Assembly: GCA_024672315.1 (NCBI GenBank)
Contig: GCA_024672315.1_4714.1
Origin: a phage
DNA length: 64,000 nucleotides
Direction: 5' to 3' (one strand)
Every line of letters begins with the position of its first letter. The first letter of the stretch is position 1. The translations under genes and the position numbers were made by a program. The notes beneath the pieces are model-generated. The model searched no databases, had not been told where the DNA came from, and saw only the letters and a list, made by a program, of their open reading frames with translations. This document shows, piece by piece, positions 432-42,985 of the stretch.

Positions 432-432
432 T

Positions 433-2019: not shown

Positions 2020-2076
2020 AACAACCTCTTTTCGCGGTTCCCTGTTAAAACGTCTTCTGTGACGTCTACCACAAAG

Positions 2077-2084
2077 GTAATATA
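2077..2084 (-). promoter_or_regulatory. putative phiKZ-type early promoter core (TATATTAC on minus strand)
   Basis: Plus-strand GGTAATATAAGC = minus-strand GCTTATATTACC, about 58 nt upstream of the 2019 start; shares the extended motif with sites at 7356, 13212 and 42173. Confidence 0.5.
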
Positions 2085-2223
2085 AGCGTGAATAATTTTG
2101 GATTCCGGCTGAGTTATCGCTCAGCATGCAAGGCATCCCGCCGAAGCGAGACACCTTGCACTAACGGAAAATATTCGCGTTACCTTCTGAATCGAAGACT
2201 CAGAATGCGATGCTAAAGCATGA

Positions 2224-3012
2224 TTAGAACGCTAAGCCATCAAAGGCTACGGACGGATCATCGTCGTCATTTGCGCTTGGCGCATCCCAACGGGTATCAG
2301 GGGCCGCTGAAGCCGAACTTGATGCGTTAGAGTTACCGTTGTACTGGCCGTTACCAGCATTACGGTTACCGCCGCCGTTGTTGTTACGGTTATAGCTATT
2401 GTTGCCACCATTACTTACGCTACGGCTTTCACCGTCGAAGTTGGTTGCGAGGATGCTTGGCAACACCGCGCGATGAATACGTACAAATTCCAACGCACAA
2501 AGCGGAGAAACAACCCCGATCTGTAAAGGTTGCCCAGACTCATCAACCAGAGCGTGGAAGCGCGGTGGCTTGAATACGAATTGGATGTTCGGTTTTTGGT
2601 ACGCTGTTACAGCGATATATACCGAACCATCATCGTTCTTACCAACCCATGTTGTACTTTCGGTAATCTGTTTCTTCTTACCTGGGTTATTGCGATCGTC
2701 GATAACCTTTTCGTTCTTCATCGCAAAGCGTTGGCCTGGTTTACCCTTAGCAACCTGCTCGAGGATCGCAAGCAGGTTATAGAACGCGTATGAGCTCATG
2801 CGTGCCCAAATGCTTTCAGCGCGACCCTGCTGGTCTTTACGACCGGTGTAAACCGTGATACGCGGTTGATTCTTAGCAACGCTAATTTTCAATGAGGGGA
2901 TTGAATTACCGCCCTCAACCTTTTCGTCCGCCCACAGTTTCCAGTTGTTGTCGTCATACGCTGTAGGAATAATGTTTCCTTGTGGTTTACTGCCCGAATT
3001 CCAATTGCTCAT
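2224..3012 (-). CDS. hypothetical protein, possible ssDNA-binding-like protein
   Basis: 262 aa; long N/G-rich low-complexity linker followed by an acidic C-terminal tail (DDDDPSVAFDGLAF), an organisation reminiscent of SSB proteins; GAGG RBS. Functional call is weak. Confidence 0.35.
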   Translation of the reverse strand: MSNWNSGSKPQGNIIPTAYDDNNWKLWADEKVEGGNSIPSLKISVAKNQPRITVYTGRKDQQGRAESIWARMSSYAFYNLLAILEQVAKGKPGQRFAMKNEKVIDDRNNPGKKKQITESTTWVGKNDDGSVYIAVTAYQKPNIQFVFKPPRFHALVDESGQPLQIGVVSPLCALEFVRIHRAVLPSILATNFDGESRSVSNGGNNSYNRNNNGGGNRNAGNGQYNGNSNASSSASAAPDTRWDAPSANDDDDPSVAFDGLAF

Positions 3013-3085
3013 TTTCAGCCTCGTTACGTAGTGTGAATCAATTTCTGGTTCAGATGATAGTCAATATTAGTTAAAAATTACAGCC

Positions 3086-3883
3086 TCAGCGGAACATGTC
3101 CAACAGAAAACGTTTTGCGAAGGGGTCACGTAACTGGTTGACGCCAAAGCGTGTACGGTCTTCCGTTGTTAATGGATTCCACTGACTCTGTTTCGCAAGA
3201 TCTAACAGCATCCTTTTTATTTTCACCGGCCCGCTGTTGAACTGTACGGCTTGGTCACCGAACGTTCCCAACGTCATCTTTGTAAATGGAAGGTTCGCAA
3301 CCTCTGGACGATCCCCACCAGTAAGTTTGGTTGACCACTGATGTTTTCGTTTCAAGGTTCCGGTATGGCTTTCTACCAAAATAAGTTCACCAAAACCGGT
3401 TCTTGCCAACAAGTCAGAAACATAGTGCGTGGTGATATACGATGTCTTGGTTATCGCGGGTAATTTACAATCCATCGATTCGATATTAGGGAGTCGATCT
3501 ACAGACGCCATCAACCCACGATAAAGTGTAGCGAGTCCTTTTTGTTTTTCGGTGTGTGGCTCCTTATGTGTAGCGTGCGGATAAACACGCTTTATTGACG
3601 CATAGGTTGGCGCATATATCCGCAAGCGAATATGGGGAACGAGTTCATTCACCAGCTGCCTTAGCTGTAGTAACTCGTTTTGAAAATCCCCTGTTATCAT
3701 CGATAATGGTAATTTATGTTGTTCAACGTCTTCAAAGCTTTCAACGAAATTGCGTGCTAAAGTACGCAGGTTGAACAACCAATCCATCGGTGTTTCTGGC
3801 TGTTGCTGTACGGCTGATAATGTTGCAGACGTACCTACCGATAAAGGATAATCACCTAACGTGCGGGCGTACATATTGCTCAT
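3086..3883 (-). CDS. hypothetical protein
   Basis: ORF-track 3086..3919; start moved to ATG at 3883 (MSNMYART...) preceded by AAGGAG. Confidence 0.55.
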   Translation of the reverse strand: MSNMYARTLGDYPLSVGTSATLSAVQQQPETPMDWLFNLRTLARNFVESFEDVEQHKLPLSMITGDFQNELLQLRQLVNELVPHIRLRIYAPTYASIKRVYPHATHKEPHTEKQKGLATLYRGLMASVDRLPNIESMDCKLPAITKTSYITTHYVSDLLARTGFGELILVESHTGTLKRKHQWSTKLTGGDRPEVANLPFTKMTLGTFGDQAVQFNSGPVKIKRMLLDLAKQSQWNPLTTEDRTRFGVNQLRDPFAKRFLLDMFR

Positions 3884-3902
3884 ACCCCACAACTCCTTCT
3901 TA

Positions 3903-5045
3903 TCATGGCAACGTATCAAGCCAAGCAGAAACCTTTAAGGCATCAACGTTCGGGTATTTATTACGAATGCGTTCGACCAACAAACGCTTAACGTTGTCCT
4001 TTGTCAAGTCCCCACCTTTCTCGATAACGTTATTGACGAAACTGTTCTTTAATAGCGACTGGTTGTTCTTAGCGTCCGTTTTAATTGACCAAACGAAGCC
4101 TGGATACAAAGAAGGAATGGAACGAAACGTTTTCGCCGCATCGTCTTCCTTATCACAGCGTATTCGGATATGATCACCCTTCTTCAATGGAGCCAATTCC
4201 CGTTCCAACACACGAATGATTTCATCTCCAACAAGACCGTGCAGTTTTATCGTCTTGTAGACATCTGCTTTCTTGTTCTCAACAAACTCCCACTGGTCGT
4301 TAAACGTTTCCGTTAACATATAACGGAGGTATCCCTTCGGACCTTCTTCACCGTGCGCCAAGCGACCAAATGAACCGCCAACCATGATACGTCCTTTCTG
4401 GGATTGTAAGTGGATATGTCCGCTCACGACCCACCCTTGGGTCTTCTCCACCATTGCGTTATACGCATCGCTGCTATGAACACATGTTGCTTTTAACGCT
4501 TCTGGTGGAAGTTGATATTCAAACGCACCGTGCATCAGAATAAAGTCCGGCGATCCCTTCTCATCAATAAGTCGGTTCACGGCCGACAACGTCACATCCG
4601 GGTCGTGGCTGTAGTTATCTGGAAGATAAAGTACTTTTAAACCAAAGTCTTCATCAACCATGCAGAGGTCATCGTAATAACGAACTTTCGCTCCTATCTC
4701 CATGACCTCGTTCTGTTCAACGAACCACTGACTTTGCTTCTGGTCGTGTAAATTGGTACCCTCAAGAAAGATCAATGTAATATCGTGTTTTCTCGCATAC
4801 CGTAACAACCAGGTACCCCAGGCACGAACAGCAACCACGTCACTCGTCACAAATGTCGTAATACGATCGAAGACATCGCCGCTGAACGTAATCACATCAA
4901 GCAGCGCAGGATCTTCTTTTGTAATGTAATAACGTAGTTGGCTAATCAGGTTTACTGTCGGTGTTTGACGGTGGATAAAGTGAATATCCGACAAGTTGAT
5001 TCCACGTAATACCCCAGGCGTTTTATTTCGACTGAAGTCTCGCAT
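3903..5045 (-). CDS. SbcD/Mre11-like metallophosphoesterase nuclease
   Basis: Calcineurin-like phosphoesterase motifs in order: LSDIHF (D-x-H), GDVFDR (GD-x-x-D), GTNLHD (GNHD-like), MHGAFE, SGHIHL (GH-x-H). Start overlaps the upstream stop (ATGA). Confidence 0.8.
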   Translation of the reverse strand: MRDFSRNKTPGVLRGINLSDIHFIHRQTPTVNLISQLRYYITKEDPALLDVITFSGDVFDRITTFVTSDVVAVRAWGTWLLRYARKHDITLIFLEGTNLHDQKQSQWFVEQNEVMEIGAKVRYYDDLCMVDEDFGLKVLYLPDNYSHDPDVTLSAVNRLIDEKGSPDFILMHGAFEYQLPPEALKATCVHSSDAYNAMVEKTQGWVVSGHIHLQSQKGRIMVGGSFGRLAHGEEGPKGYLRYMLTETFNDQWEFVENKKADVYKTIKLHGLVGDEIIRVLERELAPLKKGDHIRIRCDKEDDAAKTFRSIPSLYPGFVWSIKTDAKNNQSLLKNSFVNNVIEKGGDLTKDNVKRLLVERIRNKYPNVDALKVSAWLDTLP

Positions 5046-5827
5046 CAGAATTCCTCTAAATTGCTGCTGCTAATAGTCCCCGTCGTAGACGGCATGTTTC
5101 TACTACCCACCGACGCTGTTGTTGAAGAGGTTCTGGCTAGATTCAATCCGTTTAATAAACCACGCTCTTTTACCGTACGACGTGAACCATCACGAACGTC
5201 GTAAAGGGGTACGTTATAATGGTCAAAAATCCGAAGCCATTGCACGTAATCAGCAACAACATGGTCTTTGCTTTCATTCGGGGCAAAGCGATCAAGCTGA
5301 TGGTCGACGTAAGCTTTAGCGCTTTCAGGATTGAAGTTATACTGTCGGCGTGCTTTGTCCACCATCGCGAGGAAACATGTATTGGGGTCACGATTGATAT
5401 ATGAACGCGTCCGGATAAAGATAGCCGGTACCGTAAACAGAACCTTGTTGTTATTCCCGTCAGCAACGATGTTAACCGCACGATGTGGTTGGCCTGCTAT
5501 CTTGCACCAATCGTGAACAATGGTGCTATTACTCAACATCTCCGCGTATTCAGGATCCTGCGAAAACATTCCTGCGAACGGGTACAAGAAATGTTTAACG
5601 AACAGCGATTCGGGCAGGATGTTGGGACGCGTCATCTCCTGTAAACCTTTTCGTAGAAGCTCGCTGTTGTCTACCAGCTCCTGCCACATATCCGGTCGTG
5701 TTTTCGGGATGGACGGGTCCTGAGCACGACGAATGCGTTCTTCTTCATTTACAACCACTACCCCAGCCGGATACCCCAATAAATCCGTTCCTTCGCTAAC
5801 GTTGCTGTTAGTTTGGCGCGCCTTCAT
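5045..5827 (-). CDS. hypothetical protein
   Basis: 260-aa ORF, translationally coupled to the downstream nuclease gene. Confidence 0.5.
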   Translation of the reverse strand: MKARQTNSNVSEGTDLLGYPAGVVVVNEEERIRRAQDPSIPKTRPDMWQELVDNSELLRKGLQEMTRPNILPESLFVKHFLYPFAGMFSQDPEYAEMLSNSTIVHDWCKIAGQPHRAVNIVADGNNNKVLFTVPAIFIRTRSYINRDPNTCFLAMVDKARRQYNFNPESAKAYVDHQLDRFAPNESKDHVVADYVQWLRIFDHYNVPLYDVRDGSRRTVKERGLLNGLNLARTSSTTASVGSRNMPSTTGTISSSNLEEF

Positions 5828-6215
5828 TTACTTCCTCCTGCCACTTGATAAAATTACCACGCTCGGATCGCAGAACACCACCCAGATCGTACGATATACC
5901 TTTCTCTGTGACAATCCCTCCAATCTGGAGATCGACACGTTCCGTCGTCGGATCGATATACTTGACACGGACTTTCAATTCCACGCGATCGTAATAACGC
6001 ATTAAATAATCATACAACATCCGGTATGTCGCATCTTCCAATTTGGGTGCGCTATACTGCGATGTTGCAATGAGGTACGGTAGTGAAACGATGGAACCTT
6101 GATAGCAATACGACTGGGAATAATTCGATATTGCGAAATTGGTCATTAACCCATCCAACTTTTTACCCGATGCGGTTAAAAAGCTCGACAGTCCCGGTAA
6201 CGGATTCGATGCCAT
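5808..6215 (-). CDS. hypothetical protein
   Basis: 135-aa ORF in a same-strand gene array. Confidence 0.45.
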   Translation of the reverse strand: MASNPLPGLSSFLTASGKKLDGLMTNFAISNYSQSYCYQGSIVSLPYLIATSQYSAPKLEDATYRMLYDYLMRYYDRVELKVRVKYIDPTTERVDLQIGGIVTEKGISYDLGGVLRSERGNFIKWQEEVNEGAPN

Positions 6216-6228
6216 GAGGAACTCCTCT

Positions 6229-6702
6229 TTAAGCGTAATTCATTCCAACCAATCTATCGTAGTTAGGCATATGCCCTAACTCCAGTTCGACAGGCATGGA
6301 TACATTGGTGCGTGGTGCGTAAAATGTTCGCGTATGCATATCGATATACCCACAGTCCAAATAAACAATATCGGACAACTCCGACGGATGTTTAGGCGCG
6401 GGAATCTTTAATCGATTATAACACTCAAGCTGCCACCAAGCATGAAAAAAGTTATTGTAGGCGTACGATTTACTGTTGGCAACTTTAAGTCCGTAGATCA
6501 CCCATAACGCCGCCATGAAGTTGGTTGCGTTAATTCGCATCGGTTGTTCATTATTGAGCATGTACGTGTAGGTAAACAACGGTGTGTTACCGTCACCAAA
6601 ACGTCCGACTAAGGTATTGTTCGTGTGTTCGACCTCAAAGGAAAAATGCTGGCTGCTATTGCCATCAAAATGGATCATTCCGTTCTCCTCAAGCTTTTTC
6701 AT
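6229..6702 (-). CDS. hypothetical protein
   Basis: ORF-track 6229..6768 begins at a GTG inside a GC-rich hairpin; internal ATG at 6702 (MKKLEENG...) is preferred. Start uncertain. Confidence 0.45.
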   Translation of the reverse strand: MKKLEENGMIHFDGNSSQHFSFEVEHTNNTLVGRFGDGNTPLFTYTYMLNNEQPMRINATNFMAALWVIYGLKVANSKSYAYNNFFHAWWQLECYNRLKIPAPKHPSELSDIVYLDCGYIDMHTRTFYAPRTNVSMPVELELGHMPNYDRLVGMNYA

Positions 6703-6797
6703 TTCATAGAGTGGTGGAAATTCGTAGAAAGTTACAAAAATAAAAAAGAATGGGTAGCCCCTCCCCACCCGAAGGTAGGGAGAGACCGCAAATATAT

Positions 6798-7262
6798 TTA
6801 AACCAAAGCTGCGATAACGTCGTTAACATTGCGGCCTCGCAACTCTGCCGCTAAACGAATAACTTCATCCAGGGAACGGTTTGTACGAATCTTGGCCACT
6901 TTCCAATTTTCAGGATACTGTTCGAAGTTAAGCAACCAAGTCATTACCTTTGCTTGTTCCATACCGTTGAGTTTAATTGTCGTGCGCGGATTGGCTTTGA
7001 ACCACTTCTTGCTCAGCTGCGCCATACGGCGAACAGGGTAAGCGTAAGCGCGAGTCCAGTCTTTGGACAGATTGTCGAGTAATTCACAGTAGCTGTTGTC
7101 GTAGTCTTTGTTGATACGACGTAATAACCAGTTGGCGGTCATCTGATAAAGTTTATCATCTTCACGTAACCGCATACCTGCTACTGCTAAATAAATGATA
7201 AGACCTGCGCCCAGGATGAGAGACAGGATGAACAGAATTTGGGTTTCTTGTGCTAAAGTCAT
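6798..7262 (-). CDS. hypothetical membrane protein
   Basis: N-terminal hydrophobic helix (ILFILSLILGAGLIIYLAVAG); start set at ATG 7262 with GAGGA upstream; early-promoter-like motif upstream. Confidence 0.55.
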   Translation of the reverse strand: MTLAQETQILFILSLILGAGLIIYLAVAGMRLREDDKLYQMTANWLLRRINKDYDNSYCELLDNLSKDWTRAYAYPVRRMAQLSKKWFKANPRTTIKLNGMEQAKVMTWLLNFEQYPENWKVAKIRTNRSLDEVIRLAAELRGRNVNDVIAALV

Positions 7263-7355
7263 TTTACTATCCTCGGATTTCATTAGGATTTAATTTCCAA
7301 TATAAGGACAATGTGATATGCCTTATACAGTCGATTGATGTTGTACATCACCTAA

Positions 7356-7363
7356 GTAATATA
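7356..7363 (-). promoter_or_regulatory. putative phiKZ-type early promoter core (TATATTAC on minus strand)
   Basis: Plus-strand CCTAAGTAATATAGCC = minus-strand GGCTATATTACTTAGG, upstream of the 6798..7262 gene. Confidence 0.5.
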
Positions 7364-7381
7364 GCCGTGAAAAATAATGGA

Positions 7382-8179
7382 TTAACGTGTTCTCCTGTCA
7401 CGATGTGTATACGACTGAAGACCGATGTCCATATGCGGTAACGTCAGCGTCTGCCAGATCTGTCGTGCGTAGCGATCAAGCGTATAATCGTCAGTAACAC
7501 AATCGACGGGTTCGATGAGGTGAGTCGTATACTGGCTTTTCACAGAGAAAGGTTCGTTGTTAGCTGTATCTCCTAATCCGCTTTTCACCGTGAAGACAAG
7601 ACGTGTGACTATCATCGCCTTATGTTGCTGTTCATTGTAACGAAGGCTGCGGTATACGGCATAGCTTCCTCCTTTTAGGCTTCGGGTATAACGAAGGTCG
7701 GAGGTCGTCTCGGAAATCTGATACAGCATCCAGTCTAACGTATCTCGCCAGTACACATCATCCACATCAGGAACCGTGATACCGTACCGCGTAGGCAGCA
7801 ATTCTAAAAGCAATTTATAAAGACCGCGACGTAAGCCATGCTCTTCGGTTTCCGATAAACCGTTTCCAACGTAACGTGAAATACGTGTACGTAAATACGT
7901 ACGGATGAACATATTCGCCATCAGTGTTTTCACTCTGCTACTGGTATCCTCAAAGCGATCAACGCTGAAACTCGTTTCAATCAACCGTCCATTAAAATAC
8001 AATGCAGCAACATACATCGCATTATTGCTATCTCGTTCAATGTTTAAACGACCGCAGATATTGGCTGCGTCGTTCATGGTAAATTCTAATTTATCGTGTT
8101 CGATACGATAGATAATATCCTCCTGGGTTGCTAGGCTCGCAATGCGACGATAGCCCGGAGAAGTACGTTTTACACTCAT
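7382..8179 (-). CDS. hypothetical protein
   Basis: ORF-track 7382..8218; start moved to ATG 8179 (MSVKRTSPGY...) with GAGGA upstream. Confidence 0.5.
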   Translation of the reverse strand: MSVKRTSPGYRRIASLATQEDIIYRIEHDKLEFTMNDAANICGRLNIERDSNNAMYVAALYFNGRLIETSFSVDRFEDTSSRVKTLMANMFIRTYLRTRISRYVGNGLSETEEHGLRRGLYKLLLELLPTRYGITVPDVDDVYWRDTLDWMLYQISETTSDLRYTRSLKGGSYAVYRSLRYNEQQHKAMIVTRLVFTVKSGLGDTANNEPFSVKSQYTTHLIEPVDCVTDDYTLDRYARQIWQTLTLPHMDIGLQSYTHRDRRTR

Positions 8180-8220
8180 GATTGTCCTCGTTTTCAATTT
8201 TAAGATTGCGTGCGGCATAA

Positions 8221-8247
8221 ACCCTCCCCGCCTTATGCAGGGAGGGT
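8221..8247 (-). terminator. GC-rich hairpin, putative intrinsic terminator
   Basis: ACCCTCCC...GGGAGGGT inverted repeat followed on the minus strand by TTTAT; lies between the stop of 8262..8900 and the start of 7382..8179. Confidence 0.45.
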
Positions 8248-8261
8248 AGCCATTAAATGGA

Positions 8262-8900: not shown

Positions 8901-8915
8901 TACAGGCGTCCTCCT

Positions 8916-9153
8916 TTAGCAATGGTTGTTAGTTGCTTCTATTTCGTCAAGATACGGTTCTACGTCATCGCCCTCCACGAATTCGTTGAACCAACAGTCA
9001 ATGGTAGAAATAACCGGTGACTGGTGTTCACATTTCTTAGATACCTTAAAAGGTACGTTATTATCCATCATACCGAGTTCGGGTCGAAAACGCCCGAAAT
9101 GTTTCGCAGTCCAAATGTCTGGGACGATATGGTTGTTCATAGCGTCTCCGTCG
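8916..9153 (-). CDS. RNA polymerase beta'-like subunit (nvRNAP-type), 3' exon encoding the catalytic loop
   Basis: In-frame minus-strand translation from 9153 reads DGDAMNNHIVPDIWTAKHFGRFRPELGMMDNNVPF..., matching the bacterial beta' segment DFDGDQMAVHVP...LMMSTNNILSP. The ORF track shows only a 74-aa fragment (8916..9140) because an in-frame stop lies upstream in the intron. Confidence 0.65.
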
Positions 9154-9549: not shown

Positions 9550-9932
9550 CTTCAGTATGGTTCGCTACGCCATACCCGCACATACGTGCAACTTACGTCT
9601 TTCACGTAAGAAGAGACTATATCTTTCACCCTCAGCATTATCTGGTCGGGGCTCCCATTTCGGCGGTCATCTGACCGGTGGTTTCCCACGCCGCTTGGCC
9701 CTAACGCCCGTAAGCGATAGTCGTTGAGCGCATCTCCGTTCTGGAGACTTCGCTGCGGATTCCCCAATCCTTGCCGCTTTTACCATACCCGAATGATTAG
9801 TTCAGCCCCACGCGCTGTTCCCAGGCGTGGTTGGTGGACAAGGCTCTAAGTAGGTTCCCGCATTAGAGAGTTCCTCGTAACAACATTTCTGCGTTACTGG
9901 GCCTAACGACCCTTTCAAGATCATCACGCTTA
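9550..9932 (-). ncRNA. group I self-splicing intron (first intron in the nvRNAP-type beta' gene)
   Basis: Minus-strand P TAATGCGGGAA (plus 9855-9865), Q AATCCGCAGCG (9751-9761), R GCTCAACGACTATC (9716-9729), S AAGATATAGTC (9615-9625), P9-like hairpin CTTACG-tgaaaga-CGTAAG (9592-9610). The 5' boundary at 9933 is a best guess (exon ends in U, frame gives Tyr when joined to the micro-exon). Confidence 0.65.
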
Positions 9933-11151
9933 ACCCGATGGTGTTATCCTGCGGATCGCGTTTAACCTTGGTGATTTCAAGACATTGGTTACTGCTTCGG
10001 TCAAGTGATGGGTTTCGAACAAAGCCACACACAATCCCATCGAACGGTGTATCAGCAATAAGCTCATCATGCAGCTCGCTCATCATCGGATGATAATTAC
10101 GGACATGTTCCGCAACGAACGCACGTGCTGCTCTTGGTGAATAACCACGATGGAATAACTTGGATTGGATATGTTCTTTATTGGTTAAAGTAAATGGTGC
10201 GTATGGGAAATGCAGATGATAATAACGATGGTTCGCTGTTATCGAACTGATTACGGTACGCGTGGTAAATGGATGTAATGTACCTAATATGTTTTTACGT
10301 GTGATACCTTTCTTCTTACCGATGAACTCATCGAAAATCGCCGCATGGTATTGCAGCAGCTTCAATTGCACTTTCGCCATCCAGTTTTCTTTCTTTCTGG
10401 CGCTCAAAGGTGTTGTTGGATGATAGATACTGTTCAACGTACCGATAGCATCGATCGCACCTTCCATTTTGCTATCCGCATAACGACCGGTTGGCGTATT
10501 CTCGATAACGAACATCATGGCCGCAGGAAAGCTGATATACTGACTGAAGAACTTATCACGATGAATACGGATGAATTCTCGTAGCGTGTCAACTTTCTCC
10601 GTGTTCTTCGGTCCACGTAACGTCGGTCCTTTATACAAGATCTCCATGATGCGATCGAAGTTCTGTATAAAACTATTTACGCCACGTCGTATCCCGAATA
10701 CATCGAATTGCTGCTCCAGATAGTTCTTGAGTTCGATGGGTCGTTTTACATTTGGACGGTAACTGGCATCAATGAGCCACGTCATCGTTTCAAAGCTTTT
10801 GATATTCAACTCGCTTGCCAGCACGAGATGGACCAACGGGTTAATGAACGCATCGATTCCTTCAGGAACGCGCGCCCACACCGTCGAACGAATCTCCTGT
10901 TCTGCTGGGTAGGTTACAACCGTTTTACAGTTTGGACACACCGTGCCGAGCAGCTCACCACGATTGTAGAAACCACAACCACATTGTGGCGTGATATCCA
11001 ACGTATCGCTGGAGTAAACACGGGTGATAAAACTGTTTAATTTCTTCTTCTCTTCGACGACTTTTGTATCGTAATCGTTCAACAAAATCGGCGTAAAAGG
11101 AAGTTCTGCGAGCTGTCTATCGAAACTCACGATATCGAGCATGATGGCCAT
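9933..11151 (-). CDS. RNA polymerase beta'-like subunit (nvRNAP-type, N-terminal part), 5' exon
   Basis: Zn-finger-like CGCG...CPNC near the N-terminus; GKKKGITRKNILGTLHPFTTRTVISS resembles beta' [39 protein letters not shown] resembles NRAPTLHRLGIQAFEP (switch 2). ORF-track runs on to 9802, but the last ~43 codons are judged intron read-through. AGGAGA RBS. Lies immediately downstream of the chimallin candidate, as gp54-gp55 do in phiKZ. Confidence 0.7.
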
Positions 11152-11193
11152 GGGGTATCTCCTACAAATGAAAAAGAACGTTAGGACGTATAA

Positions 11194-11217
11194 GGGAGGG
11201 AGGTTGCCCTCCCTCCC
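11194..11217 (-). terminator. GC-rich hairpin, putative terminator/attenuator after the chimallin gene
   Basis: GGGAGGGAGG-ttgc-CCTCCCTCCC perfect 10-bp stem between the chimallin stop (11244) and the beta' start (11151). Confidence 0.45.
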
Positions 11218-11243
11218 GTCAGATTACATCGAACGTTCTTCCA

Positions 11244-13139
11244 TTAGAACAGGTTGAATGCCCCACCCATGTTGTTACCGCCAACATTCGGACGATCGCT
11301 ACGTGCGTAGATGTTGCCGGAGATGTTACCCAGACCACGAGCACGTGCTGCCATGTTACCACGAACAGCGGTACCTGCCAGGTGCTGGATGTTCTCAGGA
11401 CGGATGGTGAAGCCAGCATCAGCCGCAGCTTCGATCAGCGCCTGCAGTGCTAACGGATCGAAGTCGTAACGCATTGCCCAGCCGGTTTGTTCCCAGCTAC
11501 CAGACAGAACACGATCAATGATTTCGTGACGAGCGACAACACGCTGAGACATCGTCATATCGGTACGGTCGAAGCTGTCTTCCCAAGCTTCTACGGTATC
11601 CGGGTTAGTGATGTTCATCATGTACAGATCGTCCATATCACGAATATCGTGACGGTGACCATCCTGGTGGTTGTAGTAACCCAGCGGGATACGGTTACCG
11701 GTAGCGTAGACCAGCGGTTGGCCGTATTGATATTTCTTGCTGAAGCAACCCAGGGTAGTATCATCGAAGGCACGGTAGAGTGCTTTGTAACCTTCGGAGA
11801 TTTCTTGAACTTTACCGTCAACGTTGCCCGTAAAGATCTTCTCAGCCGCCGGGATCATACGCAGCAGCCAGCTATACTCGCCTTCTTCCGGTACGTCGAT
11901 AGAAATCAGCAGAGACGGATACAGAACCTGTTGCAGGAACTTGTAAATCTGCTCGTTGGTTTGCGTAGACAGATCCAGCGGTGCAGTCACTTCAGGATCC
12001 AGCACCATCGCCAGAGCACCTGGGTTATGCGGACCAATACCACGAGCCGCGTTGCTGATTAAAGACTGTGCCCATGCCATGCCGCTGTTCAGCGTAGCGA
12101 TGGTACCAATCAGACCCAGCACGAAGCTGTTCGGTGTGAACGCATCCAGCTCCAGCGGGTAAACGCTGGTCATCACGTAACGCGGCTGGTACTGTACAGT
12201 CGGCGGTACCGGATAGCCGTTAACCAGAACAGGGCCTTGGTTGAAGGTCGGGTTCTGCGGGCTGTAGGTCAGGTCAATGTAACCGGTGGTGGCGACCAGA
12301 CGCTGTTGACTATCGTAATCGCTCATCGCTTGACGGATGCGGTTAGAGATAGTTACAGTGATGTCAGAACGCACAGGGTTACCAACAATATCGCTGTCCT
12401 GCATACCGCTGGTGTTGTACTGAACGCTGCTGATTGGCTGATCGCTTGCCATCATGCCCAGGTTGAACTGCGGCAGACCCAGTTTATCACCGAGACGGAT
12501 TTCGATCGCGGTTTGGATTGCGTTATCTGCAGCAGACAGCAGGGTGGTTGCCAGATGCGCAGATTCAGCGGTGATTTCATTGGTCACCACAGCCAGACCA
12601 GCGATACGAACAGTACCGTTAGACTTACCGCCAATAGCTGAATACATTGCCGCCATGACTTCGTTGATGAACGTACCGTTCAGGTTATCAACCCAGGTAC
12701 GCGGTACCAGAATGTTACCATGCGGACCTTGTTCTTCACGACGCGGCAGCGGAGCCAGACCAGCAACCAGCGGCAGGACGTAACCGAAGAAGTGGTTATG
12801 ATCACCAACTTTTGCACCGCTCATAACAACCAGGGTCGGATACGGTACGCTGTACTGGTTCGGGTCAACCGCAACAAAGATGAAGTCGTCTTTGAACTGG
12901 GTATCTTCCAGATATTTCTCCATCAGACGACGGAGATTCAGTACCTGCTCGGAGCCGGTATTACGGCTGATACGACGGCTCAGTGTACGGTTGATCGTAC
13001 GCATCGTATGAGTTACTTTAGGACGGTCGGCAAAATCTGCAGCGGTTTCCAGCGCCTCATCAGCACGTTGTGCGGTGCGGGTTTCAGCTGCACGAATTTC
13101 TACATTATCGTTACCGTTATTACGTACGTCTAAGCCCAT
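11244..13139 (-). CDS. chmA: candidate chimallin (phage nucleus shell protein, ChmA-like)
   Basis: 631-aa ORF with AAGAGGAA RBS and codon usage typical of a highly expressed gene; early-promoter motif about 73 nt upstream; sits directly upstream of an nvRNAP-type beta' gene (phiKZ gp54-gp55 arrangement) and about 12 genes from the PhuZ homolog. Assignment is by size and synteny, not by a recognised motif. Confidence 0.55.
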   Translation of the reverse strand: MGLDVRNNGNDNVEIRAAETRTAQRADEALETAADFADRPKVTHTMRTINRTLSRRISRNTGSEQVLNLRRLMEKYLEDTQFKDDFIFVAVDPNQYSVPYPTLVVMSGAKVGDHNHFFGYVLPLVAGLAPLPRREEQGPHGNILVPRTWVDNLNGTFINEVMAAMYSAIGGKSNGTVRIAGLAVVTNEITAESAHLATTLLSAADNAIQTAIEIRLGDKLGLPQFNLGMMASDQPISSVQYNTSGMQDSDIVGNPVRSDITVTISNRIRQAMSDYDSQQRLVATTGYIDLTYSPQNPTFNQGPVLVNGYPVPPTVQYQPRYVMTSVYPLELDAFTPNSFVLGLIGTIATLNSGMAWAQSLISNAARGIGPHNPGALAMVLDPEVTAPLDLSTQTNEQIYKFLQQVLYPSLLISIDVPEEGEYSWLLRMIPAAEKIFTGNVDGKVQEISEGYKALYRAFDDTTLGCFSKKYQYGQPLVYATGNRIPLGYYNHQDGHRHDIRDMDDLYMMNITNPDTVEAWEDSFDRTDMTMSQRVVARHEIIDRVLSGSWEQTGWAMRYDFDPLALQALIEAAADAGFTIRPENIQHLAGTAVRGNMAARARGLGNISGNIYARSDRPNVGGNNMGGAFNLF

Positions 13140-27839: not shown

Positions 27840-27944
27840 TGCATTGCCTTCCGCGAGTGTAATCAGGAAGGTAATGTAGGTTTATTTTAATCTCCATTTC
27901 GCGATGATATGACAGTCTTTATTACGTTTACCATCTGAGGGAGC

Positions 27945-32008: not shown

Positions 32009-32019
32009 ATAAACTCCTC

Positions 32020-32048: not shown

Positions 32049-32058
32049 TTGTATTACC

Positions 32059-36389: not shown

Positions 36390-37317
36390 GGCATGCCTCC
36401 AGGAGGTATTTCATGTTGGCTTGGAAATCATTGACGTCACGCGCCATACGACGCTGATCCGCCATGAGACGAGCCAACACGGTATCACGGTAACCACGAT
36501 CGTGGTCGGCAGCAGAGCATAAAAGAATAAATGTTGGTGGATGCTCTAAAGCAATCCCAGCAACTTCTTTACTATAACCCCCAACCCAGCTGTAAGCGGT
36601 GATTTCAAACAACAACGCTTGGGTTAACGTGTTCAAACGGGGACTAATATTACTTTCTTTTAATGCTGTTACGAAAGCTGCCATGTTAGGGATATAACCA
36701 AGGTTTTCGGTTACGATACCGATGCTCGCAAAATCGTAACGAAGCGTTGTCTGGATGGTGCGCACCATAGTTAGTCTTTCATTATTTGTAAGGCTATCTT
36801 TAAACAGGCAAAGATAATACCATGCTGTTATGATGGCAACATCACGACGTTGTTGAAGGTCCAACCCTAAACGCTGTGTGATTTGTCCGCTAATCCAATC
36901 ACAAAAGACACGCATCGGGATAGGGCCAAGACGTTCAAAAGGACGTGTGCCCAAGGATTCCCATCCTACCTGAAGATACGCACGTGATTGAAGAAAGTTA
37001 TATTCACGTTCGTTAACAACGGTAGTACGCGATCCTGGGCGTGAAGTATCTGTTGGGGTGCGCGCGTAGGCGCGTTGGTCGATAACAACGCGCTGTCCGT
37101 CCATCACTGTTTTAATAACCAACGGATGGCCGAAAGAAGGGATATCGTCCAACGTATTTTTGTTGCCGATGACTTCGAGAACGGGAGTGTTTACGCCACT
37201 TTCTTCACCGGGTGCACTTAACAATCCGCCGACGTAAGCAACTTCGATAGCGGTTCGGATACGGTCAATGCCTTTTAGTTTTGTTCCAACAGTTGTGTCG
37301 TAAGGAGAGATGAACAT
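36370..37317 (-). CDS. hypothetical protein
   Basis: 315-aa ORF divergent from the sheath gene. Confidence 0.5.
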   Translation of the reverse strand: MFISPYDTTVGTKLKGIDRIRTAIEVAYVGGLLSAPGEESGVNTPVLEVIGNKNTLDDIPSFGHPLVIKTVMDGQRVVIDQRAYARTPTDTSRPGSRTTVVNEREYNFLQSRAYLQVGWESLGTRPFERLGPIPMRVFCDWISGQITQRLGLDLQQRRDVAIITAWYYLCLFKDSLTNNERLTMVRTIQTTLRYDFASIGIVTENLGYIPNMAAFVTALKESNISPRLNTLTQALLFEITAYSWVGGYSKEVAGIALEHPPTFILLCSAADHDRGYRDTVLARLMADQRRMARDVNDFQANMKYLLEACRGVERF

Positions 37318-37460
37318 ATGTAATTCCTTTATTACGGCATATAAGAAAACGGGTTAAGCACACAGATTTACGCATAATTGTAATATTTTACGTTATGCCT
37401 ATGACATTGTGTCACGTGTGCAATTATGTCATACAATTTCCTTAAATTAAGGAGAGTTCC

Positions 37461-39533
37461 ATGAGGCTTAAGAATAGCACGCCTCGCGCGATTTTTACGG
37501 GCTTTAAAGAGGGTCTTACCACGGATCCGGTTACAGCCCCAGAGATCACGCCCATTCACCTCCCGTATGTTTTCATTCAGGGTGGTCGTGGTAAAGAGGA
37601 CACCTTGCTGTTAACAGGGGACGCCCTGTCTACAGTCTATGGTGAAGATATGCTGAACTACCGCAGTAAGTACGCTTCTCCGGCAACACTGATTGCTCGC
37701 CAGGCGGCTTCTACAGGTAGCGCGATCTTCACAAAACGTTTGGTTGCGCCGGATGCAACGGCAGCACGCATCCGTATCGGTGTTGAAGTGGTCGCCGATA
37801 AACTGGTCGTTTACCAGCGTAACGCTGACGGGTCCTTTATGAAGGACACCGATGGCAACAAAATCCCTGACGGCGATAAAACCGTTGACGGGGTGAAAAT
37901 GCGTTGGATTGTTAACCACGACAAAGATGCCGTAGCGCCTAACGCCTTCGGTAAAGATGAAGTGGTTATCGGACAAATGACCGCAGCTGATGGTACCCAG
38001 AGCAACTACTATCCTATTCTGGATGGAATGGTGAGCTGGCGTGGTGCTGAAGGGGACAACATCGGCTTACGTCTGGAAGCACCGACCGCGCTGAGCAGCA
38101 ACCCTACCCGTACCGATATCATCGAACGCATCGGTGCTTTCCTGTACCGCATTCAGTTCGTGGAACGTAAGTCTTCACGTACTGCGCCGACGGTCATTCG
38201 TACGATCAGCGGCATGGAACAAGAAACCTTCGCGTTGCAGGAAGGTGTTATCCAGCCTGATGACGAAACCGATCTGTCCTTCGGTAAAGTGGTCGTTGAT
38301 GCCTACGAGTATAATGAGACGGGTAACACCCCGATCTTTGCTCCGATGGATCAGATGCATCTTTATCAGAAGAACATCGATGAAGTCGTCAAGAAGCTGT
38401 ACGAATCTGAAAGCAAAGTTAACAAAGATCTGTTAACCGACGTTGAATTCGTCGAAGGTCAGATGAACATCTTCACCGGTGTCGATTACAACGGCATCCC
38501 TTATCAAACCATCGAAGTTCTCGATGCGGATCAGGGCGGCGTCATCTTTGATGGTACCAGCACCTTCTACGCAATTGATGGTAGCGACGGTGACGTTGAC
38601 TGGGATACCTTCGACGCGTTAGCGAAACAGCAGTTCGAATCGTTCGGCAGAATGGGCGAAGATCTGGAAGACATGGCTTTCTATCCGTTCTCCATCGTGT
38701 ATGACATTGGTTACAAAGTCGACACGAAGAAAGCGATGGCAAACGTCTTGTCTCTGCGTCCGGATGTCATGATCATTGCGTCAACCCATACCTGGAAGGG
38801 TGTGGAACTGAATGTCGATGAAGAAAGCTCCATGGGCGCAATGCTGCGTAACTACTATCGTCTGCATCCAGAAAGCGTGCTTTACAATACCCCAGCTTGC
38901 CGTGCTGCTGTATTCATGCAATACGGTGAAAGCATCGAAGCACCAAGCCTGGGTAAAGTTCCGTTGACGCTGGAAGTTGCTAATAAACTGGCAACTTACA
39001 TGGGTGCTTCGGATGGTGTTATCCGTGGTACCCGCATCGATAACAACCCTGGTAACGTTGTCACAACGATGCGTAAAATCAACAAGACGTATCGTAACGC
39101 AACGGTCCGTGATCGTGATTGGGAAAACGGCTTGAACTATGTTCAGACCTACAACCGTAATTCCAACTTCTTCCCGGCTTGGGGTACGATCTACAATAAC
39201 GACCGTTCGGTATGGCGTTCGTTGATCAACGTGATCATCGGTTGCGATCTGACTCGTGTCTGCTATCGTCTCTGGGCAGAAACCACCGGTACTACAGGAA
39301 TGGATGAAACGCTGTTCCTGAAACTGATGGGCGAACGCTTCCTGGAATACACCACGGGCCGTTACAACGACCACGTGACTGTTAAGGGACGTTTCTACCT
39401 GGATAAAGAAGACGGTTATAACGGCTTCAGCTATCACGGCGATATCAGCCTGATCGGCGATCCAGGCATGACCGTGGGTACGTTTACCATCACCGGGCTG
39501 CGTCGTAACACCGAAGCAGCAGAAGCGGCGTAA
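37461..39533 (+). CDS. putative contractile tail sheath protein
   Basis: 690 aa, the size of phiKZ-type sheath proteins; AAGGAGAG RBS; biased codon usage; immediately followed by a ~300-aa gene. Call is by size and gene order. Confidence 0.55.
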   Translation: MRLKNSTPRAIFTGFKEGLTTDPVTAPEITPIHLPYVFIQGGRGKEDTLLLTGDALSTVYGEDMLNYRSKYASPATLIARQAASTGSAIFTKRLVAPDATAARIRIGVEVVADKLVVYQRNADGSFMKDTDGNKIPDGDKTVDGVKMRWIVNHDKDAVAPNAFGKDEVVIGQMTAADGTQSNYYPILDGMVSWRGAEGDNIGLRLEAPTALSSNPTRTDIIERIGAFLYRIQFVERKSSRTAPTVIRTISGMEQETFALQEGVIQPDDETDLSFGKVVVDAYEYNETGNTPIFAPMDQMHLYQKNIDEVVKKLYESESKVNKDLLTDVEFVEGQMNIFTGVDYNGIPYQTIEVLDADQGGVIFDGTSTFYAIDGSDGDVDWDTFDALAKQQFESFGRMGEDLEDMAFYPFSIVYDIGYKVDTKKAMANVLSLRPDVMIIASTHTWKGVELNVDEESSMGAMLRNYYRLHPESVLYNTPACRAAVFMQYGESIEAPSLGKVPLTLEVANKLATYMGASDGVIRGTRIDNNPGNVVTTMRKINKTYRNATVRDRDWENGLNYVQTYNRNSNFFPAWGTIYNNDRSVWRSLINVIIGCDLTRVCYRLWAETTGTTGMDETLFLKLMGERFLEYTTGRYNDHVTVKGRFYLDKEDGYNGFSYHGDISLIGDPGMTVGTFTITGLRRNTEAAEAA

Positions 39534-39548
39534 TGAGAGGAGTCCATA

Positions 39549-40439
39549 ATGCGTCCTGATAATACCCTACTCGGTGAACAGGGTGTTGGTGCTCTTAGCA
39601 ACGCGGCTATGGTCGATATTCGTGCGGGTGCCCAAAACGGGTACATCAGCAATATCGGTACGTACGTTGCTAACGCCAACTACATTCCGAACCAAATGTT
39701 CTGTCTCCTGCTGGAGGCACCACGTGGTTTCAACTATCTGCCTAACCCGGATGTACAGATTGGTTATCTGAAGGCGTTGGTAGAAGAAGTTGCGCATTCG
39801 ATTACCGGTCTGCAACGCGGATTGGAAGTTGAATTCGTTAGCGTCCCGGTTTCTGGTTCCGGTGAAATCCAGGAAGAAGTCTCTGACGTTAAACGTCCTC
39901 GCTCTAACCCGACTTTCGGGATCTATGAGAAAGAAGGTCGTTCCGTTAGCTACTTCCTGGAACAATGGATCACGTATCTGTTGATGGATCCGGATGCCAA
40001 ATATCCGATGTTGTCGTCTATCGTATCCACCGGTGGTCCAACCGACCTGCTGGCGGATTATCGTAGCGCAACAATGCTGTTCGTTGAGCCAGACCGTCAA
40101 CACAAGAAAGTGGTTAACGCCTGGCTGTGCACGAACATGATGCCTCACGGTACCGGTGACTGGACATCACGTCGTAACAAGAACGATGCGCCAAACGTGG
40201 TAGAATTGAGCATTCAGTTCACCGCGTTAACACAGACCAACTACGGCGTGCGTGCTTTTGCACAACGTCTGCTGGATAAGATGAACCTGCTTAAAGTGAA
40301 CCCGGATTTCCGTCCGGCTTATCTGAGCGACATCGATCCGGCTGTGGCAGCGCAGAAGGTTGGCTACACCTTCGACTTTGATAACAACGATACCTTTGAG
40401 GTACCGAATACTTATCAAAACGTAACACCTCGCGTGTAA
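39549..40439 (+). CDS. putative tail tube protein
   Basis: 296 aa directly downstream of the sheath candidate with GAGAGGAG RBS; followed by a strong hairpin. Confidence 0.45.
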   Translation: MRPDNTLLGEQGVGALSNAAMVDIRAGAQNGYISNIGTYVANANYIPNQMFCLLLEAPRGFNYLPNPDVQIGYLKALVEEVAHSITGLQRGLEVEFVSVPVSGSGEIQEEVSDVKRPRSNPTFGIYEKEGRSVSYFLEQWITYLLMDPDAKYPMLSSIVSTGGPTDLLADYRSATMLFVEPDRQHKKVVNAWLCTNMMPHGTGDWTSRRNKNDAPNVVELSIQFTALTQTNYGVRAFAQRLLDKMNLLKVNPDFRPAYLSDIDPAVAAQKVGYTFDFDNNDTFEVPNTYQNVTPRV

Positions 40440-40465
40440 CGTAAAAAAAAAGCATATTAACCTCC

Positions 40466-40500
40466 CTTCCTTCCCTAGCCGTCAAGGCCGGGGAAGGAAG
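40466..40500. terminator. bidirectional intrinsic terminator
   Basis: CTTCCTTCCC-(15-nt loop)-GGGAAGGAAG perfect 10-bp stem; T-rich run follows on the plus strand (GTTTATGGTTTATTT) and a T9 run on the minus strand; lies between convergent genes. Confidence 0.6.
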
Positions 40501-40513
40501 GTTTATGGTTTAT

Positions 40514-41053
40514 TTACTGTGTGTTCTTAGCTTCACGAATGAAAATAACATCAGGATATTCTTGGGATTCAATGAATTCAGGATTACGATAACGACGAAT
40601 ATGACGCATCGTCGTACAAGCAAGTTTGTAAAGATGTTCCTCCTCACGTTGTGTTAATAACATCAGTTGCGCGTCTGGGATCACGAATGGGAGTCTTTCA
40701 CTCACGTATTCTCGAAGGTCATCGAGATCATCGTGATGAATGCCCTCTGAGAGCTTATATAACGCTTCCAGCAATTCTAATCCACCGAACTGGTAACTTC
40801 CTATTGTTGTCTTAAACAATGCGCCAGAACGCGTGGTGGATGCTCTATCGGCGACATCGTATTGTTCTAACATATATCCGTAGACCATGCTACGTCGATC
40901 CAGTGTATCCGTAACGAGATTACGCCACCGTTCCAGTCTTTCGAGCGCTTTGTCGATAGAGTAAACGATCATGCCATGTTCATCCAACTCTTCCGCAATA
41001 CCCAATAGTTCATTGTTGTTAGGTTTTGCTGCACCGATAAGAAAAACACTCAT
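40514..41053 (-). CDS. hypothetical protein
   Basis: 179-aa ORF. Confidence 0.5.
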   Translation of the reverse strand: MSVFLIGAAKPNNNELLGIAEELDEHGMIVYSIDKALERLERWRNLVTDTLDRRSMVYGYMLEQYDVADRASTTRSGALFKTTIGSYQFGGLELLEALYKLSEGIHHDDLDDLREYVSERLPFVIPDAQLMLLTQREEEHLYKLACTTMRHIRRYRNPEFIESQEYPDVIFIREAKNTQ

Positions 41054-41466
41054 TACTCAAACTCCTTATTCCAAAACTCGATTAATGAATCGAGCTGTTC
41101 CTTACTGGTTATCTCACCTCCCCTAACAAAATGAAATCGTTCTTGAATGGCGATCTTTTCCAGGATATCGGTAAGCAAATGACGGTGACAGAAATTTCCT
41201 GCAGGACAATAACACCCTAACACCACAACCGGATGGGAGAATAAAGCCAACCATTCCGGTGTATGATCAACAAAGCTTTTGCGCATAAGCGTGTAGTAGC
41301 CTGCGGTATATTCATCCTCGGTTAACGTTTTTGATTTGATTCCTGTAACAAGTTCCCATGAAGGTGCGAAGAGTGGGTTACCTGTTTTCACCGTCGTGTC
41401 CAGTAGGAACGCTCGTGTGTCTGAAAGCCAACGATGTTTGGCTAATTGAAGGGTGTATAAAAACAC
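41053..41466 (-). CDS. hypothetical protein
   Basis: 137-aa ORF; the ORF-track start is a GTG; contains a Cys/His cluster (CYCPAGNFCHRH). Confidence 0.4.
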   Translation of the reverse strand: MFLYTLQLAKHRWLSDTRAFLLDTTVKTGNPLFAPSWELVTGIKSKTLTEDEYTAGYYTLMRKSFVDHTPEWLALFSHPVVVLGCYCPAGNFCHRHLLTDILEKIAIQERFHFVRGGEITSKEQLDSLIEFWNKEFE

Positions 41467-41569
41467 AGCGCTAACCCCAAAGGATAAAAATAAAACCTTG
41501 ACATAACCACCACCGCAACCCCATACAGGGCTACGGTGGGGTCATACAGAGAGACGTGTTAGGTTACAA

Positions 41570-42049
41570 TCAGTCTTTCAGCAGCTCAGCTGCATACGCA
41601 CTGATGTTGTCGCGAATATGCTTAACCTGAGTTGTTGGGAAAGATTTCTTATACGCGGTGGTCAGGCGTCCGTAAACCTGTTTCTTCTCGTTAGAGCCGA
41701 AACCAACTTCAGCGCTGCGTTGAACGGTTGCGGACACAACGTCTTTGCCCAGCGGCAGGGTTACAGAAACAACGTCAACCTGTTTGTTATCCGCCATGAA
41801 CTGCGCGCCAACGCGGCCAACCGCCAGACCGTGAGCCAGACCGATATCGGTGGTCAGTTTCTGTGCTTTTTCCAGGATTTCTTTTTCTTCCGGTGTTACC
41901 AGAGTACCCAGGAAATCACTGCCTAGCTTCTGGCTACCAGATTCGTCCAGTTTAATACCAGCGGCGATTTTATCAGAAAGAGCCTGAACTTCCGGACGTA
42001 CGTTAGAAGTGGTTTCAGTCGCTACGGTGGTTTCTACAGCTTCAGACAT
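41570..42049 (-). CDS. hypothetical protein, candidate abundant early protein
   Basis: 159-aa ORF with strongly biased codon usage, GGAG RBS and an early-promoter motif about 120 nt upstream. Confidence 0.55.
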   Translation of the reverse strand: MSEAVETTVATETTSNVRPEVQALSDKIAAGIKLDESGSQKLGSDFLGTLVTPEEKEILEKAQKLTTDIGLAHGLAVGRVGAQFMADNKQVDVVSVTLPLGKDVVSATVQRSAEVGFGSNEKKQVYGRLTTAYKKSFPTTQVKHIRDNISAYAAELLKD

Positions 42050-42172
42050 GTTAATACTCCAATTAGTTTTTTCGATCGATCAAAAGGATAAAATCAGAAG
42101 ATTCTTTCTTCATAGGGAAAACACAAGTCGGTTAAGGTTTACTTCTTAAACTCCTTGCGTTCTATCAGTTAG

Positions 42173-42180
42173 GTAATATA
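42173..42180 (-). promoter_or_regulatory. putative phiKZ-type early promoter core (TATATTAC on minus strand)
   Basis: Plus-strand GTTAGGTAATATAGACC = minus-strand GGTCTATATTACCTAAC upstream of the 41570..42049 gene. Confidence 0.5.
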
Positions 42181-42184
42181 GACC

Positions 42185-42985
42185 TCAACTTTTTTCCAAT
42201 AATGCCGCAACGTTCCGTGCGAAGCGAATCACCTTGTAATTGCGGGTCTGTTTGATATCTTCTTCCCCATCACTGTCACCTTCAGACGGATCTTCCCACA
42301 TGAAGTCTTGTTCGTCCGCTTTCTGTAAGTAGCGGTATAACTGCACCATGCTGCGTGCGGTCGGAGAGATAGCGCGAAGCTCATCCAATTCTTCATCCGT
42401 CAACAGAACGTGCGATGAACGCAGCGGCTCCATTGTCGTATTACACAACAGACGAATCAGCAGATCGACGCACGGAATAACAGAACCTGGTGCGGCGATT
42501 TCTGGGTGTAACGTATAACCCCAATATACGGTGTTAAAATACGTCAAAACAGCAGGTAGTGACGGATGTTCCATCGCACGACCAATTTGTTGTCTTACGA
42601 TAGATGCACGATCGTTCAATACATCGAAAGTAATCTGCTGCGGTTCCATAACCGCAAGTGAAATACCGTATGCGTCAGCCACGCCCAGGATTTCATGAAG
42701 GGCCGAACGTTCTTCTTCGGCGGATATTGTCCCGATTGCTTTACGCCCTGCAAGGTCAATCAGCATCGGTGAAACAGCTTCTTTAACCGCATTAAAAGAA
42801 GCCTGGTAAGCGTGTTTGTGAATATACAATGTCCACGCTAATGCGCGTTCAGCCGCATGAAGCAGATCGACATAAGACAGTTCTTGATGGCATGGGCCAT
42901 ACACGCTCACAGCAAGCTTGGTGGCTTTCTCAGAGGCTTGCATAATAACATCCGGTGATTTAGGCATATCGCGTTCTTCTTGCAT
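42185..42985 (-). CDS. hypothetical protein
   Basis: 266-aa ORF. Confidence 0.5.
   Translation of the reverse strand: MQEERDMPKSPDVIMQASEKATKLAVSVYGPCHQELSYVDLLHAAERALAWTLYIHKHAYQASFNAVKEAVSPMLIDLAGRKAIGTISAEEERSALHEILGVADAYGISLAVMEPQQITFDVLNDRASIVRQQIGRAMEHPSLPAVLTYFNTVYWGYTLHPEIAAPGSVIPCVDLLIRLLCNTTMEPLRSSHVLLTDEELDELRAISPTARSMVQLYRYLQKADEQDFMWEDPSEGDSDGEEDIKQTRNYKVIRFARNVAALLEKS

Follow-up and report, generated by a model that had tools for sequence, protein, structure and literature searches.

Candidate virion RNA polymerase promoters upstream of chimallin and other early genes in a Goslar-like Escherichia coli phage

A motif centred near -10 can be found bioinformatically in every jumbo phage that encodes its own RNA polymerases (RNAPs), and it has proved to be an early promoter wherever tested (PMC7598289). 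In phiKZ the early promoters number 28-32 sites with the core TATATTAC (Ceyssens 2014 as cited in PMC7058600; PMC8244752; PMC10914365), and in both phiKZ and 201phi2-1 further positions are conserved around -20 and -30 (PMC8244752, PMC11512511). The 201phi2-1 early consensus is TTAWTAVAA_HYWTTTRARR_BTATATTACDWHDGTG (PMC7058600 Table 2), and its transcription start sites (TSSs) have been mapped (PMC11512511); the N1M2 consensus contains ...TTTCARRYAKATATTATYWAAGTGWA, and N1M2 and OBP share ...TTTCARRYAKATATTATYWAAGTG (PMC7058600). In phiKZ and phiR1-37 the TSS follows the consensus by 6 nucleotides (nt); the early element of phage AR9 is ...TATATTAT-N6-G+1, also written AAATATATATTAT-N6-G+1 (PMC5312081). 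Here we analyzed a 64,000-nt stretch of phage DNA (GenBank assembly GCA_024672315.1, contig GCA_024672315.1_4714.1; referred to as the window herein), in which an initial annotation made from the letters alone had flagged TATATTAC upstream of four minus-strand genes as a probable early promoter. The four sites, P1 to P4, belong to a longer and sharply bounded element. In agreement with that annotation, we put the probability at about 85% that they, and probably a weak fifth site, are early promoters that would be read by the injected, virion-packaged multisubunit RNAP (vRNAP).

Over a 4-kb stretch around the chimallin candidate the window shares 97.4% identity with Escherichia phage vB_EcoM_Goslar, which serves as the E. 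coli model for phages that form a nucleus, and three Goslar-like IMG/VR contigs are 95-98% identical to it. Judged by its sequence, the window is from a distinct Goslar-like E. coli chimallivirus, and its counterpart in Goslar spans roughly 158.7-223.8 kb. To test the motif across a genome and against an annotation, we loaded the full annotated sequence of Goslar (237 kb; 7% non-coding; 216 of 247 genes on the minus strand). As a chimallin search in IMG/VR gave close relatives only, distant relatives were drawn from a phage collection instead. We found no description of Goslar promoters in the literature searched, and neither the genome paper nor the RNA-seq paper (PMC10541120) contains the word 'promoter'.

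A bounded element around the phiKZ core

A search of the window returned four copies of TATATTAC, all on the minus strand and at the positions first reported (Table 1), and Table 2 of PMC7058600 confirms that this 8-mer is the published phiKZ early-promoter core. The count of the bare 8-mer is not significant: four copies were observed versus 2.15 expected and at least four occurred in 17 of 100 shuffles, figures that by themselves fit the chance recurrence of an A/T-rich 8-mer. When the minus-strand contexts were compared, each copy was found to sit in a longer common element of ~38 nt that reads, 5' to 3', an A/T-rich upstream part, TTTCAcGg, a TAYATTAC core, five variable bases and TG (consensus tAat.cAaaa..TTTCAcG.cTAtATTACcTa.gTGAt). 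The TTT lies at -11 to -9 relative to the core with A/T-rich blocks further upstream, and the upstream A/T-rich part comes in two flavours, TTAAyNCA or an A-tract form, TTGAAAAAAA. Information content is limited to -21 to +16 relative to the first core T and is zero outside. Since it stops so sharply at both ends, this is a bounded cis-element; a dispersed repeat was considered and rejected on the same grounds.

The pattern TAYATTACY-N4-TG matched the window five times versus 0.11 expected, and none of 100 shuffles reached five matches. As this pattern was chosen after the data had been seen, we also scanned the window with a cross-validated matrix, which avoids that problem and was trained solely on the eight Goslar sites outside the window-homologous region. 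The matrix recovered exactly the four TATATTAC sites as strong matches (32-51 bits), followed by the weak fifth site (Table 1); the next best window match scored 2.6 bits, and the largest score in 100 random windows was 12.4 bits. These scores, along with the excess of the extended pattern and the orthologous conservation described below, already refute chance recurrence, whose probability we regard as negligible.

Several details of the sites differ from their first description. The extended form initially proposed, GnyTATATTACyTA, holds at three sites and fails at site 2084, which reads GCT-TATATTAC-CTT. A weaker variant, TACATTACC, had been placed at 27869-27877; it is present, but at 27870-27878. 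This variant carries TG at the right spacing, lacks the upstream TTTCAcGg block and lies in the divergent gap before a gp225 homologue, with an equivalent predicted start at 187625 in Goslar. The sites had also been called intergenic, which is correct for the 8-mers but not for the extended elements of P2 and P4. The 5' TTAA of P2 overlaps the stop codon of the upstream gene (7382-7384), and P4 extends with its upstream half over the final codons and the stop of the gene before it (42185-42985; overlap 42185-42202). Site 2084 falls within a mechanically longer GTG open reading frame (ORF; 433-2154), yet upstream of the homology-supported ATG at 2019, which begins 58 nt beyond the end of the P1 core. 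The spacing of 58-124 nt to the start codons stands as first described. At site 7363 it is 94 nt when measured to the ATG at 7262, which is backed by a Shine-Dalgarno sequence and is also where the Goslar annotation begins the gene. The predicted start of P3 is 66 nt before the chimallin ATG.

The sites could also be host sigma-70 promoters, with TATATT as the -10 element and an upstream hexamer as the -35, in which case E. coli RNAP would start the early genes. TATATT does match TATAAT at five of six positions and, in the TTAAyNCA flavour, TTAATC stands 16 nt upstream of TATATT and matches three of the six positions of TTGACA; the A-tract flavour, however, has no -35-like hexamer. A sigma-70 scan called none of the four sites, and its sole nearby match (7401-7374) uses window-specific bases that differ in Goslar. 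Sigma-70-like matches were in fact fewer than in shuffled sequence, both in window positions 1-15000 (18 versus 24.1 ± 4.7) and in 26000-44000 (15 versus 29.3 ± 6.5). The invariant positions of the element, namely the core TTAC, the C at -8, TG at +6/+7 and TTTCA directly before the core, are not sigma-70 determinants, and phiKZ-type infection is independent of host RNAP (PMC7598289). We consider host-read promoters extremely improbable.

Distribution in Goslar and conservation in other phages

Eight of the ten TATATTAC copies in Goslar share the extended context, and searching with a matrix of these eight adds four sites whose core is TACATTAC. Scored with a matrix from all twelve, the Goslar sites reach 43-55 bits, and no other position in the 237 kb scores above 15 bits. 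All twelve strong sites are on the sense (minus) strand, 39-166 nt before a start codon, and eleven are intergenic. TG at +6/+7, counted from the core, is present in 12 of 12 Goslar sites, in the five window sites and in seven phiKZ sites. Intergenic positions account for 12 of the 13 TAYATTAC-N5-TG copies in Goslar versus none of the ten TAYATTAC copies without TG (Fisher p = 1e-5). The motif is thus not equally common within genes or on the non-coding strand: copies with the extended signature are intergenic and sense-strand, and the plain copies are all coding. The predicted Goslar starts, all on the minus strand, are 2553, 15053, 43252, 49718, 86691, 113783, 142786, 160777, 166055, 172964, 201930 and 226681, the eighth to eleventh being the equivalents of window starts 2070, 7349, 13205 and 42166.

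The twelfth strong site (45.9 bits) lies inside gp047, a 62-codon annotated ORF (Goslar 49584-49772); because a full-strength element lies within it, gp047 may be a spurious ORF. At three Goslar sites, 43266, 49732 and 86705, GGGnGAGG...TATGC occurs 38-41 nt ahead of the site and looks like a Shine-Dalgarno sequence with a start codon, or half of a hairpin. Allowing one mismatch in the core while requiring the TG yielded no further convincing sites in Goslar intergenic DNA, and a degenerate candidate at Goslar 134262 was inseparable from noise. A second weak variant, TACATAAC at Goslar 151634 (minus strand; 15.2 bits), has no TG at +6/+7; the gene that begins 103 nt downstream of it, gp165, is RNA polymerase beta-like. 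Both this variant and the weak window site carry GGAGAT-N10-aCCTACAT; a second promoter class based on the two (GGAGAT-N10-ACCTACATWACCT) was rejected, as no further members were found within two mismatches. An IMG/VR search with TTCACGRCTAYATTACYT returned the three Goslar-like contigs and three unrelated contigs, and the latter were dismissed as chance matches with no matrix score and no similarity to Goslar.

As the elements are strand-specific and stand 51-117 nt before start codons in the window, an RNA-level block, that is, a 5'-leader processing, stability or translation signal with the real start further upstream, was also weighed. An ambiguous published figure legend for the chimallin gene, discussed below, would place the core inside the transcript. 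Against this, secondary structure is not conserved, the element lacks palindromic symmetry, and at three of the four sites the flanks fold no better than shuffles. The distance to the start codon also varies more than fourfold among the twelve Goslar sites, and the elements of the phiKZ class that are homologous to this one precede mapped primary 5' ends (PMC5312081, PMC7598289, PMC11512511, PMC8244752). A signal of this type is very improbable in our view.

Conservation was assessed at the chimallin loci of seven distant phages (4-4.7 kb each, both strands scanned with the Goslar matrix), whose chimallin is only about 24% identical to that of the window. In five of the seven, the top match was the site just upstream of chimallin. 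The corresponding Noxifer site ranked second (17.2 bits) behind another upstream site at 18.7 bits, and no convincing match to the Goslar matrix was found upstream of chimallin in Xanthomonas phage RTH11. P3 gives gap-free alignments to the sites in front of chimallin in phiKZ, RAY, RSL2, Eowyn, PhiPA3 and Noxifer; 32 of 50 positions are identical to the phiKZ chimallin promoter, and the core starts 80 nt before the ATG in both phages. The primary TSS of PHIKZ054 carries the early motif (PMC8244752). Closer to the window, the elements are identical or near-identical in the three Goslar-like contigs. One of these, L007 (IMGVR_UViG_3300011560_000001), has an insertion of ~33 nt (21018-21060) right after the TATATTACCT of its P1-orthologous promoter. 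The insertion duplicates TTACCT and still leaves TG at +6/+7, which we count in favour of a promoter.

Genes behind the elements

The genes served fit an early class, as the initial annotation had proposed, and include chimallin, homologues of PHIKZ055 and PHIKZ068, PicA and ChmC (gp176; 10.64898/2026.04.21.720040). PHIKZ068 (gp68) is the sigma-like fifth subunit of the phiKZ non-virion RNAP (nvRNAP; PMC13282480, PMC7598289), and its homologue in the window is followed, beyond the left edge, by PicA (Goslar gp174). Behind P4 come the 159-aa gene and two further genes, all three small and with no assigned function; Pfam and PHROGs searches assigned no function to the genes that directly follow P2 and P4. 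In Goslar, chmA, picA and chmC are reported to be early genes and to reach normal transcript levels in vesicle-arrested infection, and at the early vesicle stage only vRNAP colocalises with the phage DNA (PMC10541120).

These expression data bear on a further alternative, in which the elements are promoters or operator-like sites of nvRNAP or of a phage-encoded factor and belong to a middle or continuous class. An early promoter and a middle one coexist at PHIKZ054 (PMC8244752), continuously expressed AR9 genes carry two promoters (PMC5312081), and sequence cannot identify the enzyme. The published middle and late motifs differ, however (TACT with an A-repeat centred at -22; TATG at +1; PMC7598289, PMC8244752), and the element matches the early consensus position by position. 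Transcription of chmA, picA and chmC in vesicle-arrested infections (PMC10541120) is also at odds with this alternative. Furthermore, as two of the served operons encode nvRNAP subunits, their first expression cannot depend on nvRNAP. Recognition by nvRNAP or another phage factor is thus quite improbable.

If the elements are early promoters, vRNAP injected with the DNA would read them, the TAYATTAC core would span -14 to -7, and the G of the invariant TG, five variable bases and a T further on, would be +1; the predicted starts in Table 1 derive from the spacing in other phages. The first-wave mRNA from P3 would encode chimallin and then, past a hairpin, the nvRNAP beta' subunit, and that from P1 the sigma-like nvRNAP subunit and PicA. 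The mRNAs from P2 and P4 would carry, respectively, a run ending in ChmC and the small operon of unassigned function. The injected polymerase would thereby provide for both the nucleus shell and its own later successor, the second polymerase.

The hairpin, GGGAGGGAGGG-CAA-CCTCCCTCCC, lies between the chimallin and nvRNAP beta' genes and is likely an attenuator or terminator within the P3 unit. Among intergenic 7-mers in Goslar, CCCTCCC, GGGAGGG and T7 show the strongest enrichment (10-15-fold), which together with the post-chimallin hairpin suggests a phage-typical polypurine/polypyrimidine terminator hairpin. When RNA folding was examined upstream of the four promoters as a check for terminators, it was significant at P1 only. 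There, a hairpin cluster between ChmC and P1 (2103-2225, minus strand), including a perfect 16-bp stem with a UUCG loop, folds at -52.6 kcal/mol (z = -4.8) and has no U-run after it.

The window also holds three of the five vRNAP subunit genes. No element was found with either matrix before these genes or before the plus-strand structural genes of the window; all five vRNAP subunits are present in Goslar virions by mass spectrometry (10.64898/2026.04.21.720040). Between the vRNAP ORFs 47459-51805 and 52481-54016 lies a group I intron (Rfam RF00028, 63.6 bits; 52052-52436, minus strand). At the same gap Goslar has an intron plus a 490-aa ORF, gp206, similar to phiKZ ORF179; the window is without this ORF, leaving just 675 nt between the two vRNAP ORFs. 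Beside the nvRNAP beta' gene, window 9140-9920 is without the ~1.4 kb that holds the HNH endonuclease gp186 in Goslar. Within it, 9158-9543 (386 nt) is 96% identical to the annotated group I intron of Goslar and scores below the Rfam gathering score, and 9544-9910 (~367 nt) has no counterpart in Goslar.

Table 1. Candidate promoter elements and associated features of the window, with element scores from the general and the cross-validated (CV) matrix.
Feature	Position	Strand	Core	Predicted start	Score (bits)	CV score (bits)	Remarks
P1	2067..2106	-	TATATTAC, 2084-2077	G 2070	43.2	33.1	
P2	7346..7385	-	7363-7356	G 7349	52.1	51.0	Best window match
P3	13202..13241	-	13219-13212	G 13205	46.7	38.7	A-tract type (ATTGAAAAAAATTT)
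P4	42163..42202	-	42180-42173	G 42166	42.9	31.7	A-tract type
Weak variant	27861..27900	-	TACATTAC, 27878-27871	G 27864	14.7	13.6	
PHIKZ068 homologue	433..2019	-					First gene behind P1; E = 5e-28, residues 23-518 on 20-517 of 7OGP chain B
ChmC homologue (Goslar gp176)	2224..3012	-					Assigned by position; last gene of the run from P2 (gp182 to gp176)
gp182 homologue, 154 aa	6798..7262	-					First gene behind P2; no family match
nvRNAP beta' subunit, PHIKZ055 homologue	9802..11151	-					Second gene behind P3; E = 1.5e-59 to 7OGP chain A; phrog_2987
Hairpin	11190..11220	-					Probable attenuator or terminator
Chimallin (nuclear shell protein)	11244..13139	-					First gene behind P3; Goslar gp246 'nuclear shell protein'
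159-aa gene, Goslar gp214 homologue	41570..42049	-					Behind P4; phrog_9746, function unknown
Three vRNAP subunit genes	44890..54016	-					gp210 homologue 44890-45600, gp207 homologue 47459-51805, gp205 homologue 52481-54016

Weighing the early-promoter reading

Four observations weigh against early promoters read by vRNAP. The first is the legend of Extended Data Fig. 4 in PMC10541120, according to which the chmA 'TSS sequence' begins 91 nt upstream of the ATG. This position is 11 nt upstream of the core, and a true start there would place the core within the transcript; as the same number is given for the next gene, the legend probably follows a display convention. The second concerns coverage, since the twelve strong and two weak sites reach 95 of 247 Goslar genes via uninterrupted co-directional runs versus 175 genes expressed at 5 min (PMC10541120). 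Thirdly, PhuZ (window 21098-22078), which is reported to be early, has no element in its 64-nt upstream gap. Given the shortfall in genes reached and the lack of an element at PhuZ, other promoter types or long read-through must exist. Lastly, the close relatives are 95-97% identical throughout, so they provide no signal of selective constraint beyond the L007 indel.

The Goslar lineage might drive early transcription from a very small set of vRNAP promoters (12 strong and one or two degenerate, versus ~30 in phiKZ). Early mRNAs would then have to be very long and polycistronic, crossing hairpins as well as, in antisense, plus-strand genes. A ~13-kb block with PhuZ and the DNA polymerase would have a single early start, the degenerate site at 27878. 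The A-tract type, kept at chimallin family-wide, and the TTAAyNCA type would mark sub-classes of different strength or timing. We offer this extension of the early-promoter reading tentatively and think it rather unlikely.

Taken as early promoters, the sites provide a testable promoter map for a Goslar-type phage, comprising the five window sites and the twelve strong Goslar sites, each with a predicted +1. The map indicates the genes that would be first within reach of the injected polymerase, namely those for chimallin, PicA, ChmC and two nvRNAP subunits, and it shows that the motif sites are too few to match the 175 genes reported early. It also supplies short portable elements for engineering or reporter work. 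The current understanding of how these phages work is unchanged.

Comparison with known promoter classes

The nearest likeness is to phiKZ. In the first 50 kb of the phiKZ genome, all seven TATATTAC copies lie on the sense strand before genes, with TG at +6/+7 and an A/T-rich upstream part that includes TTT and occurs in both flavours, there an A-tract and TTCAAAC/TTAA. The Goslar-type element thus shares with phiKZ the identical 8-nt core, the TG, the T-run with A/T-rich sequence upstream, and sense-strand placement before early operons. It differs in that the spacer from T-run to core is G+C-rich (CACGGC versus AAACAG or AAGATC in phiKZ), a third of the sites in Goslar have TACATTAC as their core, and a Goslar genome has 12 strong sites versus 28-32.

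With 201phi2-1 the element shares the same order of blocks over ~35 nt (TTAWTA..., TTT-RARR, TATATTAC, N4-5, GTG) and conservation around -10, -20 and -30. Unlike in 201phi2-1, the base after the core is C or T, which the D of that consensus excludes, and host and G+C content differ. N1M2 resembles it in the TTTCA-RR block directly before the core, in the GTGA after it and in placement before RNA polymerase genes and genes of unknown function, and its promoters are likewise a motif-only prediction; the N1M2 core, however, ends in T (ATATTAT) rather than C, and N1M2 has 31 sites versus 12 in Goslar. The AR9 element has a comparable TATATTA-type core, six bases and a G start, and it is read by the virion multisubunit RNAP independently of protein synthesis, a class trait that the Goslar-type element would share by analogy. 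AR9 is not a chimallivirus, however, has uracil-containing DNA and lacks the TTTCAcGg block.

The sigma-70 extended -10 promoter has in common with the element an A/T-rich hexamer near -10; there is no -35 element at 16-18 nt here, and the invariant positions differ. At none of the four sites do -35 and -10 hexamers 16-18 nt apart match at least 9 of 12 positions. The Goslar-type sites do have the hallmarks of the phiKZ-type class, including a conserved A/T-rich core, conserved positions upstream, sense placement before early operons, vRNAP genes in the same phage and orthologous conservation. The class itself is already established, and the Goslar-type sites are an ordinary additional case of this known promoter class.

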